Shown: in pieces, positions 57,571 to 64,000 of the stretch | Layout: each line of letters begins with the position of its first letter | Numbering within the stretch: the stretch's first letter is position 1 | Assembly: GCA_043824495.1 (NCBI GenBank) | Contig: JBDRSV010000010.1 | Span: forward strand, 1-64,000 | Length of the DNA stretch: 64,000 bases | Direction: 5' to 3' | From: Candidatus Aenigmatarchaeota archaeon | GTDB lineage: Archaea; Aenigmatarchaeota; Aenigmatarchaeia; QMZP01 | Notes under the pieces: generated by a model | The model's database searches: none | The model's input: only the letters and a program-made list of their open reading frames with translations | What the model was told of the DNA's origin: nothing | Made by a program: the position numbers and the translations under genes

Positions 57571-57640
57571 CTTATTGGCACGAGTATCTAAACCACATCA
57601 ATAGAGCTTATTGGCATACTGGCATACTGGCACGGTCCTA
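57571..57640 (+). promoter_or_regulatory. Two copies of the TTATTGGCA-(TACTGGCA)n-CG motif upstream of the dead recombinase
   Basis: CTTATTGGCACG at 57571 (n=0) and 57607-57640 (n=2), then TTTATAT at 57649. Confidence 0.6.
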
Positions 57641-57685
57641 GGATCCAGTTTATATCTGATGAAAATCTACTCTAAAGTGATCCCT

Positions 57686-58423
57686 ATGCGTCTAGTACCC
57701 CAACTCTTAGATAAAATCGAACCCTTCGTTGATGAATTTAGGCAGTGGCCTAAAGGAGACATTCCTTCTTCCAAAGAAGGTAAGTGGCTTCAAGTTCAAA
57801 TGTCTCAATTCACACCACCTTTTGTCATTGAGAAGAATTATGAAAATAGTTTCATATCTTCTTCACATGTGGTAGATACAGAATTACTTGATGCTACCTT
57901 GAAGAGAAAAACAAATCTTCTCTCCAAGCAAGAAATAAGAATACTTATTGGTTCAACAAAAAACTTGAAACATAAAATATTATTACAACTATTGTATGGT
58001 TGTGGTCTTCAGATATTCGAAGCTATTGAGCTAAAGATAGATGACATCAACCTGAAAGAGTGTAGAGTCAACGTAGGAACGAGAACAGTTCCTTTATCAA
58101 CAAAAATGGTTCCACAACTGGAATTCTTGTTTAGATACACACAAAAACCAGATAATAATCACCTGTTTCCCAACTGGAACGGAGGTCACGTAACACCAGA
58201 AGATGCAGAACAGATCGTGAAATATGCATTCGCTGCTGCTGGGTTGAGACCAGTTTCCCCACACGCTCTTAGACACAGCTTTGCTTCACACCTCCTCGAA
58301 TACGGCGTCAGAATAGGAATAATACAAACACTTCTAGGAAATTATGATGCAACAAAAATGAGACACATGAAAATTTCAGAAGAAATGATCAAGAACGTGA
58401 AGAGTCCTCTGGATAAACTTTAA
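57686..58423 (+). CDS. Catalytically inactive tyrosine-recombinase paralogue
   Basis: GLQ replaces GLR, GKGxK loop deleted, LLGN replaces LLGH, no nucleophile Tyr. HALRHS and KSPLD retained. Start could be 57659. Confidence 0.85.
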   Translation: MRLVPQLLDKIEPFVDEFRQWPKGDIPSSKEGKWLQVQMSQFTPPFVIEKNYENSFISSSHVVDTELLDATLKRKTNLLSKQEIRILIGSTKNLKHKILLQLLYGCGLQIFEAIELKIDDINLKECRVNVGTRTVPLSTKMVPQLEFLFRYTQKPDNNHLFPNWNGGHVTPEDAEQIVKYAFAAAGLRPVSPHALRHSFASHLLEYGVRIGIIQTLLGNYDATKMRHMKISEEMIKNVKSPLDKL

Positions 58424-58883: not shown

Positions 58884-59720
58884 ATGAAAGAACTCTTAAT
58901 ACGCTTGGAAAATGAACTAAAATCTCGCGGCTTCAGCAGAAAGACCGTAAAATCCTATTTATTTCACGTTTCAACTTTCTTGCGTCACATATCAACAGAT
59001 TCCACACAAGAAGAGATACAAAGATATTTCATACAATTAGCAGAAAACGCAGATCCCAGAACAGTTAATCTGCGCATAAGCGCAGTTAAATTCTTTTACA
59101 AGAACATCCTACACAGAAACCTCTACATAAACTACATGAAGAGACCCAGAAAAATACCTGAAGTTTTAACTGTACAAGAAGTCATGTATATGATATCGTC
59201 CACGACTAACCCAAAACACAGAACTATAATTGAAATGTTATACGGCTGTGGACTCCGGGTATCAGAAATAACTAAAATAAAAAAATCTGACATAAACATT
59301 CCAGAAAGAATAATATTCATAAGACAAGGAAAGGGAATGAAAGACAGAATTGTTCCTCTTCCTCTTACACTAAAAGAGATTGTATATAATTTCAGTGTAG
59401 ACGACTGTCCATATGTTTTCCAATCAGAAAGAGGAGGAAAGCTAACGGAAAAAACAATACAGGTGATAGTGAAAAATGCAGCCAAGAAAGCCGAAATAAA
59501 AAAGCGCGTATCTCCACATACTCTCCGTCACAGCTATGCAACCCATCTCCTCGAATCAGGAACAGATATTCGTATAATTCAACGTCTTCTAGGTCATTCC
59601 TCGGTCAAAACCACAGAACTCTATACTCATGTTTCAAGAGCTCTTCTGAAAAACATAAAAAGTCCTCTAGACTTCGTAAAAACATTCAATATAGAACATT
59701 CTAATCCAAACAATGCGTAG
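58884..59720 (+). CDS. Xer/IntI-like tyrosine recombinase (intact) without the IntI-specific insertion
   Basis: N-terminal SAM-like ELKSRGFSRKTVKSY. GLRVSE, GKGMKD, HTLRH and LLGH...TTELY all present. Short YVFQSERGGKL segment where IntI carries its extra domain. Confidence 0.93.
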   Translation: MKELLIRLENELKSRGFSRKTVKSYLFHVSTFLRHISTDSTQEEIQRYFIQLAENADPRTVNLRISAVKFFYKNILHRNLYINYMKRPRKIPEVLTVQEVMYMISSTTNPKHRTIIEMLYGCGLRVSEITKIKKSDINIPERIIFIRQGKGMKDRIVPLPLTLKEIVYNFSVDDCPYVFQSERGGKLTEKTIQVIVKNAAKKAEIKKRVSPHTLRHSYATHLLESGTDIRIIQRLLGHSSVKTTELYTHVSRALLKNIKSPLDFVKTFNIEHSNPNNA

Positions 59721-59737
59721 AAACACTAGTTATAAGA
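59716..59737 (+). other. attI-like site (core GTTATAA at 59729-59735)
   Basis: GTTATAAGA pairs perfectly with TCTTATAAC at 61685-61693. No upstream R''/L'' arm found. Confidence 0.7.
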
Positions 59738-59791
59738 AATCGTTGGTCTTGATTGGTTAAAGGAGATCGCCGCCATTTGGCTTCGCCAAAG
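59729..59791 (+). repeat. Cassette leader repeat, copy 1
   Basis: Identical to 63578-63630 apart from a 10-nt insertion. Contains TAAAGGAGATCGCCGCC and the hairpin TTTGGC-TTC-GCCAAA. Confidence 0.9.
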
Positions 59792-59923
59792 ATAGCCTGC
59801 CTTCGGCAGTATATAGAAAGGGTATTCTTTGTTTTCGAGGACATAGGGAAGTAGTACTCATAAATGGGCATAATAAAGATTAAAAATAACACAACACCTA
59901 TATACTACTAAGGGATTGATAAT

Positions 59924-60845
59924 ATGAATCAAATAGAAATTAATAGAGAAAATCTTGAAAAGAGACTTAAGCAAGTAGGGCTTAGTTCAGATATATACAG
60001 CGTCAAACCAAAAAAATTTATTAGAATTAATACGAGACATCCAGTGAAAATAAGAGAATTACAGGAAAGACTTAATAGAAATTATGGAATCGAAGTAGAA
60101 TTTATAGAAACATGTATTGAGGAAATTTATGAATCAACAAACTCGGATATTGGAGGGTGGATTAGTGGTAAAAAGAACGAATTCTTTAATAAAAATTATT
60201 TTATTCAAGATTTAGCAAGCGTTATTTGTGTTAAAGAACTTGATTTAAAAGAGGGTCAATCTCTTCTTGAAACATGTGCAGCGAGAGGTTTCAAGTCTAT
60301 TCTGGCTCATGATTTAACACATGGAAAATTAAGAATAACAGCATTAGATATAGATCCTAAAAAAATATCAAATAATGATGGGATTCTTTAAAAAATTTGG
60401 AATAAATGCAGAAACCCGATTAATGGATTCCACAAAATTTCAAGGTCAAAAATACGATAGAGTACTGGTTGATGCTCCTTGTTCTGGTGAAGGTGTGACT
60501 GTGGTGTATGATGAGAAATTGAGAAGAGATGTTAGTGGATTTGATAATGTTGTGCAATATTCACAAGAAGATGTTGAAAGATTTTCAGAATTACAAGGAA
60601 AACTTTTACAAAGCGGTTTTGACCACTTAAAGAAGAGTGGAATCCTAAATTACGCCACCTGTACCTTGAATAAGATTGAAAATGAAAGCGTAATCCACGA
60701 ATTTCTTCAAAGAAACGGCGATGCTTCAGTTGTTAACTCTAATATTGATAAATATGGTATCAAGCACAAGGTTTCTAATCTAGGGGTAAGAATCTTGCCT
60801 GGAAAAACTAAGGGCTTTTACTTTACAAAAATTATAAGGAGATAA
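59924..60845 (+). pseudogene. RsmB/NOP2 RNA m5C methyltransferase split by a +1 frameshift in an A7 run (60359-60365)
   Basis: ORF1 has motif I-like ETCAARGFKS. ORF2 has VDAPCSG and YATCT. Removing one A gives ...DPKKYQIMMGFF... Confidence 0.85.
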
Positions 60846-60877
60846 TCTTCAAAAGAAGACAAAGAATCTATCACCGA

Positions 60878-61210
60878 TTACCTTGTCCTAAAACCAAACC
60901 TTTTTTCATAATTCTTGTGGTCTAGCCATTCTAGAATAATTGCGATGACTTCAATCTTGTCCCTTCCAAGAGAGTATAATAATCTCCACCCATTTGGTAA
61001 ATCATACTTCCAGAGATTGTCTATTCCATATTTCTTGATATATTCCTTTGGAATCAGTTTTTGTTTTATATGAATGAAAGCATTCGGATTCTTCTCAATT
61101 TCCTTAAAGGCGTTGCTTATACTATCATATAACCATTTCTCTCCAGGAGAATCCTTAAGATTGTCATACGCCTTCTTCACATTTTCGTCTGCGAAAACTA
61201 ATCGTGTCAT
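60878..61210 (-). CDS. RelE-like putative toxin
   Basis: NLWKYDLPNGWRLLY motif, translationally coupled to the upstream gene. Confidence 0.75.
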   Translation of the reverse strand: MTRLVFADENVKKAYDNLKDSPGEKWLYDSISNAFKEIEKNPNAFIHIKQKLIPKEYIKKYGIDNLWKYDLPNGWRLLYSLGRDKIEVIAIILEWLDHKNYEKRFGFRTR

Positions 61211-61485
61211 TTAATCAACAGATGTGGTTTACTCATGTACTTCTTTACAAGTTCTGGATTCCAAATCCAAACTACATGTCCTTCTTTGTCTGTGACAATC
61301 TTACCTGAATCCATAAGGTAATCGAAAACTACACAGAATGTTTGGTACATCATTTTCTTTGGGAGATGTTCCCAAAGCTGCCTTTTCTTGTACTCTCCAC
61401 TGTTATTTTTGATAAACTTCTCTACCATAAGTACAGTATCCAACTGTGGATAATGCAAAATTCCTTTCTCCATTAATTGTGGCAT
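61207..61485 (-). CDS. Putative antitoxin (winged-helix-like)
   Basis: Small gene upstream of the RelE-like gene, with a palindrome over its promoter. Confidence 0.65.
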   Translation of the reverse strand: MPQLMEKGILHYPQLDTVLMVEKFIKNNSGEYKKRQLWEHLPKKMMYQTFCVVFDYLMDSGKIVTDKEGHVVWIWNPELVKKYMSKPHLLIK

Positions 61486-61493
61486 AAAATCAC

Positions 61494-61519
61494 CTTGTTA
61501 TATATATTTATATAACAAG
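61494..61519. promoter_or_regulatory. Perfect 11-bp palindrome over the TA promoter
   Basis: CTTGTTATATA-TATT-TATATAACAAG. Confidence 0.75.
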
Positions 61520-61578
61520 TATTTATAAAGGTTTCGGTTGAGCCTAAAACATATCATAAGACAAAGAATCTCGTCCGC

Positions 61579-61595
61579 GGCGGCGATCTCCTTTA
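61579..61595 (-). repeat. Inverted copy of the 17-bp leader motif
   Basis: GGCGGCGATCTCCTTTA is the reverse complement of 59758-59774 and 63597-63613. Confidence 0.9.
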
Positions 61596-61795
61596 TTAGT
61601 TATGTGCACAACGACTCTGCGGCTGCTTCGCAGCCTTGCCTCGCATGGCGAAACCATTTCAGAATAGGAGAAATCCATGCTCGGTCTTATAACAAGCAGC
61701 TTGGCGGTTCGCTGCTGCTCTCCCAAATTCGATCTTTGCTATGAAGGCGGTCTCTTAAAACTAAAACATTTATAAACTGGATACAAATTATTGTT

Positions 61796-61993
61796 ATGAG
61801 CGAATTGAAGATGCATGGAAAACACCAAACTCAATGGGTTACTATATCCCTTGATGAATATGAGAGCATGAAGGCTACTCTCGAGATTTTATCTAGCCCT
61901 AAGGCGATGGAGAAAATTAGACGCGGTGAACAGGAAAGACTAGCTGGAAAGGGGCAGAAACTAGAAGATGTGAAGAAAGAACTTGGAATTTAG
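61796..61993 (+). CDS. Phd/YefM-RelB-like antitoxin
   Basis: ISLDEYESMKATLEILSSP..M..I motif. Confidence 0.8.
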   Translation: MSELKMHGKHQTQWVTISLDEYESMKATLEILSSPKAMEKIRRGEQERLAGKGQKLEDVKKELGI

Positions 61994-62244
61994 AAATCAT
62001 CTTTATGTAATATAGTATCTATTTGAACTAATTTCTCTTTTTCAATGATTACGTAGATGATTCTCCATCGCTTTTCAAATCTTAATTCCCACTTTCCCAC
62101 CAGAGGCCATCTTAGTGGCTTACCATAAATATCTGGATATTCCTTTAACTTTTCAATTTTCTTGAAAAATCGTCTTTGCATTTCTGCATCAAATTTCTTC
62201 AGATCCTTCTTGGCCTCTGGCATTATCTCGATATCATAACTCAT
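61990..62244 (-). CDS. RelE/ParE-family toxin
   Basis: GKPLR..L.G.WELRF...WRIIY motif. Confidence 0.9.
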   Translation of the reverse strand: MSYDIEIMPEAKKDLKKFDAEMQRRFFKKIEKLKEYPDIYGKPLRWPLVGKWELRFEKRWRIIYVIIEKEKLVQIDTILHKDDF

Positions 62245-62328
62245 GAAATATAATTAAATTCTATACTAATAAATCGGCCGCCCTTTAAAAGACCGGACTT
62301 TGCCAACCTGCTGATGTTAAATAACATA

Positions 62329-62883
62329 TTACTCGGCAGACCGCATTTTGAATTCAGAATCTAAAATACTCATTATCAAATCATTGTAAAACTTCCCATC
62401 TATATAGGCGTTGTCTCTGAGAATCCCATCCACCTTGAAGCCGCATTTTTTATAAGCGGCAATTGCTCTTTTATTGAAATCTAAGACAACTAAGCTGATT
62501 TTATGGAGTTTTAATTGTATAAATCCGAATTTTAGAATGCAATTAATTGCATCGGTTCCATATCCCTTTCCGAAATAGTCTTGAAGAATTCCTATTGCTA
62601 ATCTGACATTTTTATCTTGTTTATTGATTTGATGGAGACGACAACTTCCAATATATTTGTTATCTGATTTTTTGATGATAGCAAATGACAATTCCGATTT
62701 CTGAGCAATTGCCTCTTTGAATCTTTCTTTTACTTTATTTAGTGGGGTAGGTTTCCATTTCTTTGAGCCTCCACACATTATAGTGAATTCTTTGCTTTCT
62801 CTTGTCTTTGCAAAATCTTTGAAATCGGATTCATGTAACTGTCTGATATAAACATTATCCCCATTAATTTTTGGAAGTTTCAT
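62329..62883 (-). CDS. RimJ/RimL-type GNAT acetyltransferase (cassette 62317-62988)
   Basis: YFGKGYGT..I, N.RAIAAYKKCGF..DG motifs. Confidence 0.92.
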   Translation of the reverse strand: MKLPKINGDNVYIRQLHESDFKDFAKTRESKEFTIMCGGSKKWKPTPLNKVKERFKEAIAQKSELSFAIIKKSDNKYIGSCRLHQINKQDKNVRLAIGILQDYFGKGYGTDAINCILKFGFIQLKLHKISLVVLDFNKRAIAAYKKCGFKVDGILRDNAYIDGKFYNDLIMSILDSEFKMRSAE

Positions 62884-62981
62884 GTATTTTAGTGGATTTT
62901 AGAGGTTATATGATTAACGGTCTGCCTCCGTCATACGCTTCGTCGCTTCGCTCCTCGGTCTCAAACCAAGGTTTTCGACTT

Positions 62982-63064
62982 ATTTAACAGAAGTTTAAAG
63001 GTTCCGCTACGCTGCACCCACATTTTTTCTAAAAGAAAAACGTCTTATAACCCTAACGTTAAGT
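62982..63064 (+). other. attC-like site 2 (83 nt)
   Basis: ATTTAAC-AGAAG-TTTAAA-GG ... TTTTTCT/AGAAAAA hairpin ... TC-TTATAA-CCCTAAC-GTTAAGT. Confidence 0.8.
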
Positions 63065-63111
63065 GAAATTGCTACGAGCAAATTTAAATGTCTATTCTCT
63101 TTACATTAATT

Positions 63112-63522
63112 ATGGTTGATTTTATCAGAAAGAAATCCGAAAAGCCCACATTTTCACAGAAAGGGCTTGATGGATATCAATTTCTTTTAGAAAACAAGAA
63201 TGTAGAAGTATATTTCGTGGACGTGAAAATGGGGCATGATAATTACATTATTAGTAAAAAAATTACTCACATCTATTTTGTTATAGAAGGCGAAGGATTT
63301 TTCGATATAAGCGGAACTAAATTTGATGTTAAACTTGGAGATTTCATAGAAGTTCCGCCAAATAAGGAATATTGTTATTCAGGAAAAATGAAATTGTTAC
63401 TTATCATGAACCCGCCGTGGTTTGAAGGAAACGAAGAGATTACTAAGAAAAATCTTCTGTTGAATAGTTTGCCCTCCGCAACTCTCCCTTCGGTCGTCAC
63501 GGATCACTTAACAAAAGATTAA
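63112..63522 (+). CDS. Cupin-domain protein (cassette 63059-63512)
   Basis: H.YFVIEGEG.F.I.G...GDFIEVPPN cupin motifs. Reads into the att site; stop lies in the L'' arm. Confidence 0.85.
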   Translation: MVDFIRKKSEKPTFSQKGLDGYQFLLENKNVEVYFVDVKMGHDNYIISKKITHIYFVIEGEGFFDISGTKFDVKLGDFIEVPPNKEYCYSGKMKLLLIMNPPWFEGNEEITKKNLLLNSLPSATLPSVVTDHLTKD

Positions 63523-63584
63523 GACACTCACTACGTTCGTCCTAATTTCCTAAAGGAAACTAGTCTTAACCTCGAATGTTATAA
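63506..63584 (+). other. attC-like site 3 (79 nt)
   Basis: ACTTAAC-AAAAG-ATTAAG-AC ... TTTCC/GGAAA hairpin ... GT-CTTAAC-CTCGAAT-GTTATAA. Confidence 0.85.
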
Positions 63585-63630
63585 GAAATCGTTGGTTAAA
63601 GGAGATCGCCGCCATTTGGCTTCGCCAAAG
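63578..63630 (+). repeat. Cassette leader repeat, copy 2
   Basis: GTTATAAGAAATCGTTGGTTAAAGGAGATCGCCGCCATTTGGCTTCGCCAAAG. Confidence 0.9.
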
Positions 63631-63669
63631 AGGTTTAATATAAATATGAATTAAAACAAAGTTTAATTT

Positions 63670-64000
63670 ATGAGTTGGAAATACAAAGTGCTTCAGCATA
63701 AGAATTTACTCTCCGTTCTTATGATAGTAGCGGTTGTTGTGATCAGTGGATGTACAACTCAACTCGAACCTACACCAACACCAGAACCAATTCCTACTCC
63801 AGAACCGGCACCTGAACCAGAAATTATAAATCAAAAACAAGTTACTTTAGCAAATGGAGTTATTGAAGCAAATAGCCTATTTGCATCAGATATTTATGAT
63901 AAATACAAATCAGAAGATGGAAATCTATTTTTCTCACCTTATAGTATTTCATCTGCACTGTCAATGACTTATGAGGGAGCAAAAGGACAAACAGCAGAAG
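63670..64000 (+). CDS. Serpin lipoprotein (3' truncated by window edge)
   Basis: Read manually: ISGC lipobox, PTPEP linker, NLFFSPYSISSALSMTYEGAKGQTAE serpin motif. Confidence 0.92.
   Translation, partial: MSWKYKVLQHKNLLSVLMIVAVVVISGCTTQLEPTPTPEPIPTPEPAPEPEIINQKQVTLANGVIEANSLFASDIYDKYKSEDGNLFFSPYSISSALSMTYEGAKGQTAE

Follow-up and report, generated by a model that had tools for sequence, protein, structure and literature searches.

A leader shared by unrelated cassettes next to a XerA-type recombinase gene in an Aenigmatarchaeota genome may be the duplicated flank of a docking site

Why do two cassettes with unrelated cargo begin with the same non-coding sequence? The question is raised by a cassette array in the genome of a Candidatus Aenigmatarchaeota archaeon, where a methyltransferase/toxin–antitoxin-like cassette and a serpin cassette open with a common leader, downstream of the gene for a XerA-type tyrosine recombinase. 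The stretch analysed, here called the window, is the first 64 kb of contig C10 (105,994 nt); the genome (G000) is a metagenome-assembled genome (MAG) of 1.01 Mb in 29 contigs, 80% complete. A sequence-only reading had noticed the leader and a 17-mer within it that recurs in inverted orientation, and had suggested that the cassettes are built from a common scaffold. We find that idea weakly supported. The account that we prefer, tentatively and at somewhat less than an even chance, takes the leader for the right-hand flank of a XerA docking site, duplicated by a site-specific (Campbell-type) insertion, and not for a universal scaffold. The features needed first are the following.

58884-59720, plus strand: XerA-type tyrosine recombinase, 278 aa, transcribed toward the array, matching NF040815.
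59729-59835, plus strand: full-length leader, 107 nt, non-coding, starting at G|TT, 8 nt past the xerA stop codon.
59729-59744, plus strand: Xer-type right arm/core GTTATAAGAAATCGTT, 16 nt, common to all three leader copies.
59748-59757, plus strand: 10-nt segment CTTGATTGGT, in the two long copies and missing on the serpin side, with TTGGT repeats on both sides.
59758-59774, plus strand: 17-mer TAAAGGAGATCGCCGCC, first direct copy.
59776-59790 and 63615-63629, plus strand: hairpin 1, TTTGGC-TTC-GCCAAA, in both window copies.
59797-59809, plus strand: hairpin 2, CTGCC-TTC-GGCAG, in the long leader copies only.
61579-61595, minus strand: inverted 17-mer; at 17/17 no better inverted repeat joins the two cassette ends, and none of 500 shuffles equals it.
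63578-63631, plus strand: truncated leader on the serpin side, with arm, 17-mer and hairpin 1 but without the 10 nt and everything past hairpin 1.
63597-63613, plus strand: 17-mer TAAAGGAGATCGCCGCC, second direct copy.
C4:29600-29706: third leader copy, 96% identical to 59729-59835.

The common leader of the two cassettes is borne out as direct repeats of 19 nt (59729-59747 and 63578-63596) and 40 nt (59753-59792 and 63592-63631), each 100% identical, and the two copies bracket 3.85 kb of cassettes. The three 17-mers and both copies of hairpin 1 that the sequence-only reading had described are also present, and about 0.04 matches to the 17-mer are expected by chance, even at 3 mismatches. The 53 nt that it took for the leader are the shared part, but not the full length, which the copy on contig C4 puts at 107 nt with a second hairpin. 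After the arm come the 17-mer, two TTC-loop hairpins and a T-run, and the homology between the two long copies ends at TTTGTTTT, the 3' end of the module. With the C4 copy, the leader is not confined to the two sites in the window. Genome-wide the 17-mer occurs four times: two direct and one inverted copy in the window, and one in the C4 leader. Perfect hairpins with a TTC/GAA loop number 13 in the 1-Mb genome, 6 of them within leader copies or within the 169-nt module that carries the inverted 17-mer. The 10-nt difference between the window copies, thought to be an insertion in one of them, is there, but its direction is probably the reverse. Because the C4 copy bears CATGATTGGT where the first copy has CTTGATTGGT, and because TTGGT repeats flank the segment, the difference is best and more simply read as a deletion between the TTGGT repeats (microhomology) in the serpin-side copy. 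The serpin-side leader is a decayed copy.

The left boundary of the leader is sharp. All three copies open at G|TTATAAG, and every left-hand homology boundary falls at the G of GTTATAAG. To the left of this point a comparison of the three upstream sequences found similarity no better than chance (p = 0.28-0.98). The 53-nt repeats at 59729 and 63578 both open with the arm, so the block between them has directly repeated dif-like flanks; the arm, TTATAAGAAAT, is similar to the dif arm of P. abyssi, TTATATCTAAA (PMC2958812). What the boundary means is indicated by the two cassettes between the methyltransferase end of the array and the serpin.

62316-63058, plus strand: GNAT acetyltransferase cassette, opening with GTTAAATAA (62316-62324), which complements the cassette's own R'' TTATTTAAC (62980-62988) at 9 of 9 positions.
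63058-63578, plus strand: cupin cassette, opening with GTTAAGTGA (63058-63066), which complements the cassette's own R'' TCACTTAAC (63504-63512) at 9 of 9 positions.
63518 and 63563: boxes of the cupin site, L'' ATTAAGAC and L' GTCTTAAC, respectively.

In both cassettes the R'' box lies 66-78 nt from the cassette end, and a spacer of 5 nt separates it from the L''-like box after it. The probability of a random 9-mer complement in a 150-nt window is about 0.0013 for each cassette, so the two matches are not due to chance. Since these cassettes, the third and fourth of the array, start with exact complements of their own R'', G|TT is the crossover. Judged from its sequence, the array appears to follow an integron-like logic despite its XerA-type enzyme, with G|TT-bounded cassettes whose predicted start is complementary to their own R''.

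The enzyme itself can be assigned to the Xer family from its profile and structure matches. The archaeal XerA model NF040815 gives 225.8 bits against a cut-off of 220, and the nearest solved structure is P. abyssi XerA, 4A8E (E = 3.7e-46). The integron-integrase models TIGR02249 and PRK15417 match it in two pieces and leave out about 77 profile positions, against which the protein has 18 residues, and the IntI4 structure 2A3V likewise aligns in two stretches only; by both comparisons, the IntI-specific additional domain (around patch III) is absent from this recombinase. It is the top-scoring of seven Phage_integrase-family matches across the MAG. On its 5' side are a second, weaker recombinase paralogue, catalytically dead, at 57611-58423, and an Orc1/Cdc6 gene.

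These observations can be put together as follows. The leader would belong to the recombination sites of XerA, not to particular cargo, and would consist of a predicted Xer-type binding arm (the 16-nt GTTATAAGAAATCGTT) and a species-specific structured flank. Recombination at G|TT would have joined this module to three left partners: the 3' end of xerA, the attC-like site of the cupin cassette, and a dif-like half-site on C4 (GGTATAAC-acctt-G). A circle with one leader copy, inserted into the resident copy, would give direct repeats around the 3.85-kb block. Such a circle would most likely have come from XerA recombining the docking site with a downstream site and carrying the docking flank along. 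The serpin-side copy would later have decayed by the 10-nt microhomology deletion and by the loss of what lay past hairpin 1, and the C4 copy would be an orphan dif-like site. The direct repeats would be a ready substrate for excision of the block; directly repeated like sites are efficient excision substrates elsewhere (PMC12901181). The inverted 17-mer would be part of a different unit, the 169-nt 3' module, which is leader-independent in a second strain and would form a 17-bp stem with only one of the three leaders.

Evidence from the population comes from the assembled contigs of the groundwater source sample, the sole sample containing the stretch; these contigs break at repeats. Breaks in the assembly graph fall at the leader and on either side of a 169-nt node (61560-61728). 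This node has a depth of 59.2, compared with 33.5 and 34.7 alongside, and a second context with unrelated sequence on both sides; the flanks of that second context are not in this MAG. Because of the double depth and the second context, we assign the inverted 17-mer to a separate, modular 3' block. The total depth of the leader 17-mer, 110.6, is fully accounted for by the copies already known (36.5 + 33.5 + 40.7). Each genome therefore has three leaders and one inverted 17-mer with no hidden copy, and two of the three leaders are without a partner. A second-strain contig of 5587 nt (depth 27) has a sequence like the xerA end with GTTATAAGAAATCGTT, then 752 nt of other sequence, then the right half of a cupin-type site again with GTTATAAGAAATCGTT, and then unlike sequence. 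Alignment of this contig to the window breaks off at 59744 and 63593. Another genotype, with different content, thus has the 16-nt arm at these two junctions as well. No excision joint or empty-site joint was found in the source-sample contigs, broken at repeats as they are.

The same contig bears on the plainest alternative, which is that the leader is a functionless local duplication made by homologous or slipped recombination without XerA, the inverted 17-mer being a leftover of rearrangement. The window copies are 100% identical over 53 nt while the C4 copy is different, which suggests recent copying or gene conversion, and a 13-nt direct pair at 60857 and 61559 brackets another nearby segment. 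Against it stand the repeat boundaries, which match the G|TT crossover in each of three independent contexts, and the same 16-nt core at both junctions in the second strain. We consider this explanation improbable.

Related genomes tell something of the docking site. Six genomes of the family (G043, G003, G005, G012, G004 and G001) have a contig end shortly past the xerA orthologue, at a distance of 81-899 nt, which points to a strain-variable or repeated stretch there. Between G004 and G005 no base differs from the xerA stop codon as far as GTTAG, and beyond it they diverge. In G001 a 57-nt site is present twice, behind xerA and behind radA, with one of the copies at C1:32265-32321; the two agree up to GTTA and differ from there on, and the docking site is therefore duplicated in this genome. 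The placement of the G|TT junction 8 nt past the xerA stop, with relatives diverging right after GTTA(G), comes from sequence comparison, in which no insertion event was observed. The leader itself is absent from 46 genomes of the family and 370 of the class, apart from a partial homologue in another genus (G042:C23), which lies at a contig end and has both hairpins. In metagenome contigs the exact pattern of 17-mer plus hairpin had 0 matches, and two patterns had 0 matches in viral contigs. Searching genome contigs for the 17-mer with one N gave scattered single matches in unrelated bacteria and archaea, as chance predicts for 16 specified bases. Among 51 metagenome XerA loci (up to 55% identity), ordinary genes lie downstream in nearly all, and a repeated flank in none.

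The orphan copy on C4 lies between two minus-strand chromosomal genes, for an alpha/beta hydrolase and a dockerin-domain protein, which are preceded by PPDK, M42 peptidase, DsbA and Maf genes. Past it there is no gene on the plus strand, and no cargo gene is led by it. A C9 paralogue of the C4 flank yielded no empty site. C4 also has the best dif-like site, AGTAGGTATAA-CACCTTG-TTATAAGAAAT. The palindrome ATTTC-N3-TAA-N5-8-TTA-N3-GAAAT, sought as a dif of the 28-bp form with two 11-bp arms and a 6-bp spacer, is not in the genome, and the motif TAAC-N4-9-GTTANNAGAAAT is not enriched over control in the family. A cluster of GTTA-N4-RAAT on C15 falls within coding sequence, which shows that chance can produce clusters of this kind. 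Two roles for the leader were considered and rejected. A promoter or 5' untranslated region for the downstream gene does not suit the C4 copy, which lacks a plus-strand gene, and the methyltransferase and serpin genes have AT-rich upstream regions of their own. A micro-ORF does not suit the alignment with the C4 copy, where by our reading both substitutions are non-synonymous. A search of the MAG for a 16S rRNA gene, with whose 3' end (Shine-Dalgarno pairing) the 17-mer might be compared, found none.

The isolation of the C4 copy in an intergenic region would also suit a small transcription unit used as an integration target in the manner of tRNA genes, with a TATA-like TTATAA, a structured RNA of about 75 nt and an oligo-T stop. 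The two long copies are homologous between the TATA-like box and TTTGTTTT and no further, integration into an RNA gene classically leaves a full copy at one end and a partial one at the other, and the partial homologue in another genus has both hairpins. Against this reading, Rfam (E <= 1) and ARAGORN, run on 58000-66500 and 58000-72000, found no relevant RNA family and no tRNA; the leader RNA folds no better than shuffled sequence (z = +1.29); and the two substitutions in hairpin 2 relative to the C4 copy are not compensatory. A functional RNA gene would not be expected to be missing from 369 of the 370 other class genomes, and the integrase lies outside the repeats. We regard an RNA-gene target as unlikely.

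The idea of a common scaffold rests on the first cassette, which is laid out as follows together with the gene pair behind it.

59924-60845, plus strand: RsmB/F-type methyltransferase cargo, in two overlapping open reading frames (ORFs; 59924-60391 and 60375-60845); Pfam PF01189, E = 6.6e-24.
60857-60869 and 61559-61571, plus strand: 13-nt direct repeat AGACAAAGAATCT, bracketing the minus-strand two-gene module and equal to the first bases of the 169-nt module.
60878-61485, minus strand: two-gene module, 110 aa and 92 aa, with a toxin–antitoxin-like layout and no family match.
61560-61728, plus strand: 169-nt 3' module, or trailer, of the first cassette.
61599-61605, plus strand: core-like box GTTATGT, 3 nt past the inverted 17-mer.
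61621-61635, plus strand: hairpin GGCTGC-TTC-GCAGCC, within the 169-nt module.
61684-61693, plus strand: candidate R'' of the first cassette, GTCTTATAAC, whose last 9 nt exactly complement the leader start GTTATAAGA.
61796-62244: convergent Phd/YefM-like (plus strand) and ParE/RelE-like (minus strand) genes, bracketed by CGGTCTCTTAAA (61748) and TTTAAAAGACCG (62284), 11/12.

The order in the first cassette is GTTATAAGA, 17-mer, hairpins, cargo, inverted 17-mer and TCTTATAAC. The 17-mer pair is thus nested within the complementary pair GTTATAAGA (59729) and TCTTATAAC (61685), giving a potential long-range stem that frames the cassette. Between 59 and 64.2 kb the 9-mer TCTTATAAC occurs only at 61685 and 63043. 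An extended inverted alignment of the leader with the 169-nt module finds the 17-mer and nothing more. The sequence-only reading had put the GTT of the GTTATGT box in the register of an att right arm. The box is there, 3 nt after the inverted 17-mer, but it is probably not a true cassette boundary, as the complement that a cassette start should find in its own R'', here GCACATAAC, is absent from the array.

Taken as a model, the scaffold would be an empty unit of 5' leader and 3' trailer that folds back through the 17-mer and captures cargo in the loop. Part of the idea survives: the leader is tied to recombination, leader and trailer are modular and occur each with varied neighbours, and cargo is separable from its flanks, as with the serpin, which lies between quite different flanks in G037, a sister species of the same genus. 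The first cassette does have both halves, nested in GTTATAAGA and TCTTATAAC, and short inverted repeats of their own frame the GNAT ORF (9/9; GGCAGACCG at 62335 and CGGTCTGCC at 62918) and the Phd/ParE pair. The remaining parts are not supported. These short repeats are not significant alone (p = 0.16-0.4). An inverted partner exists for one of three leaders only, and the depths leave no hidden copies; the leader on C4 has no cargo gene; and the second strain has the trailer without the exact leader. The serpin cassette, predicted to be closed by an inverted 17-mer, has none: the 17-mer occurs in neither orientation in the 42 kb of contig past the serpin, nor elsewhere in the genome except in the C4 leader. 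The empty leader-trailer units that had been proposed were found neither in this genome nor in the 370 class genomes nor in the metagenome or viral scans. We therefore doubt the scaffold model, and judge it about as unlikely as the RNA-gene target.

A related possibility would make the leader a birth scar. The recombinase would join the docking site to a downstream site, and flanking chromosomal DNA would be excised as a circle; the newborn cassette would then have the docking flank at its 5' end and the 169-nt trailer at its 3' end, sharing the 17-bp stem. We hold this possible, with low confidence. If it were true, an intermediate of cassette genesis would be open to direct observation.

The cargo of the first cassette has some history of its own. 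The reading frame of the methyltransferase changes near 60375-60391, and it is 39-44% identical to an unbroken paralogue at C29:21187-20393. The 13-nt repeat around the two-gene module is the same as the start of the 169-nt block, as though an insertion had split that block, which probably once came straight after the methyltransferase. The two-gene module has a paralogous pair on C8, 41-46% identical. Just 5' of it, at 61494-61523, is a near-perfect AT-rich palindrome, CTTGTTATATATATTTATATAACAAG, with GTTATA/TATAAC boxes inside, resembling an operator or promoter. The exact 12-mer GTTATAAGAAAT occurs at G000:C29:21618-21629 (minus strand), about 430 nt upstream of the unbroken methyltransferase paralogue, in a coding region that we read as phosphoglycerate-kinase-like; about 0.8 occurrences are expected genome-wide by chance, so this may be coincidence. 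The Phd/ParE-like pair is found 74% identical in G037 (C39:1969-5424), in non-array DNA beside a gene whose translation we read as SepF-like. As a separate observation, the hexamer CGGTCT/AGACCG has 6 copies in 61682-62956 (1.3 kb), where about 0.16 are expected (124 per Mb, both strands), and several of these copies make up inverted repeats around cargo genes.

The inverted pair might also be taken for the terminal repeats of a non-autonomous transposon of IS630/Tc1 type, with 15-bp ends and TA, and at 59758 and 61595 the 17-mer can be read in that way. A transposase gene does exist elsewhere in the genome. Nevertheless, there is one pair only, with two solitary copies and four copies genome-wide, whereas a transposon or miniature inverted-repeat element has paired inverted ends and a target duplication at each copy. 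The solitary copies lie within the same extended leader, which is not expected of independent insertions, and no transposase lies between the repeats. The sole transposase searched for and found is Y1 (PF01797), of IS200/IS605 type. Enzymes of that type use subterminal hairpins, not TA-flanked inverted ends. A transposon origin is thus very improbable. The Y1 gene is at C23:4162-4518 (minus strand) on a 5.3-kb contig, and we saw no link between it and the leader hairpins.

The last feature to consider is the serpin and what lies beyond it.

63670-64000 in the window, to 64977 on the contig, plus strand: serpin gene; Pfam PF00079, E = 1.1e-122 for the whole ORF.

The serpin is 85% identical to the copy in G037, while the flanking housekeeping genes are 67-74% identical. 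The G037 serpin (G037:C26:1-2797) has a GC-rich site, GAACCNATCATCGTGRGG...GTTA, on either side, and a short hairpin comes after each copy of this site. In the window genome the DNA past the serpin is AT-rich and without GC-rich sites, and TCTTATAAC was not found between 63.6 and 106 kb. Arm-like boxes GTTAGAAAGAAT (65059-65070) and GTTATAATAAAT (65393-65404) flank a DUF1801 gene at a distance of 2 nt, the first ahead of its start codon and the second past its stop codon; neither box has a matching R''. Beyond the serpin the array may go on with eroded sites.

Several points weigh against a docking flank duplicated by insertion. First, only the first 16 nt are retained at the junctions of the second strain; docking therefore does not require the 17-mer and hairpins, which may be parts of cargo units. 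Second, the shared inverted 17-mer is not accounted for. Third, the spacers between left and right arms are 7-9 nt, unlike classical dif. Fourth, the single-strand folds of the att-like sites are no more stable than those of shuffled sequence, which is also true of RNA and DNA folds of the leader and the 169-nt module. The minus strand of 63500-63590 folds into the expected two-box hairpin, yet with z = -0.35, and the minimum-energy structure of 62975-63072 is not the expected two-box hairpin. Fifth, by the comparison with G037, the serpin is itself mobile cargo. With this and the junction-like boxes at 65059 and 65393, the truncated leader may be internal to the array and not its native end, which lowers our confidence in the exact history. 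Finally, it is from the arrangement of sites that we infer XerA to be the acting enzyme, and the same is true of the order of events and of any function of the 17-mer.

The origin of cassette recombination sites is an open problem of integron biology, and the locus is of interest in that light. With a block bracketed by leader copies, modular 5' and 3' parts, and a serpin found between unrelated flanks, cargo and site modules are exchanged separately here. If capture of the docking flank holds, it would be a simple route to new cassettes requiring only the recombinase. If it does not, what we describe is a local duplication in an integron-like array.

The closest known systems are integrons, including those of archaea (Ghaly et al. 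2022, PMC9668308), where attI sites are directly downstream of intI. As in these, a putative docking site and then a row of small cassettes come directly after the recombinase gene here, with an R''-L''...L'-R' layout, a G|TT crossover and a start complementing its own R''. The differences are in the recombinase, which is XerA-type and without the IntI-specific domain, and in the 53-107 nt to the right of the crossover, which are repeated at both ends of the block and at an orphan site; the canonical attI x attC exchange does not yield that. Partial copies of attI within bacterial arrays are known and functional, and the delta-attI cassettes and attI duplications of class 1 and 2 integrons likewise have a partial docking-site copy in the array beside an unrelated gene (PMC12901181). 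There it is the integrase-proximal attI that is repeated, in clinical mobile integrons with IntI1, whereas here the repeat is on the cassette side and its identity as attI is presumed. The candidate counterpart here is the truncated leader at 63578-63631; the second strain conserves only 16 nt of the leader.

Elements that exploit Xer include the integrative mobile elements exploiting Xer (IMEX), such as the CTX phage and the gonococcal island, and the pdif modules of Acinetobacter. Common to Xer/dif systems, IMEX and this locus are a Xer-type recombinase, a dif-like arm (TTATAAGAAAT compared with TTATATCTAAA), an insert between directly repeated dif-like sites and conserved core-flanking sequences. 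The arms here are 7-9 nt apart and not 6, and there is an extra attC-like R''/L'' half. The site here is beside xerA, unlike the dif sites of Thermococcales (PMC2958812). Sedentary chromosomal integrons have species-specific attC families, for example the Vibrio cholerae repeats. The module described here differs from these in lying at the 5' side of the crossover product and in some units only. It resembles them in that non-coding modules are common to unrelated cassettes in one host, and in that the same cargo, the serpin of G000 and G037, is found with host-specific flanks.

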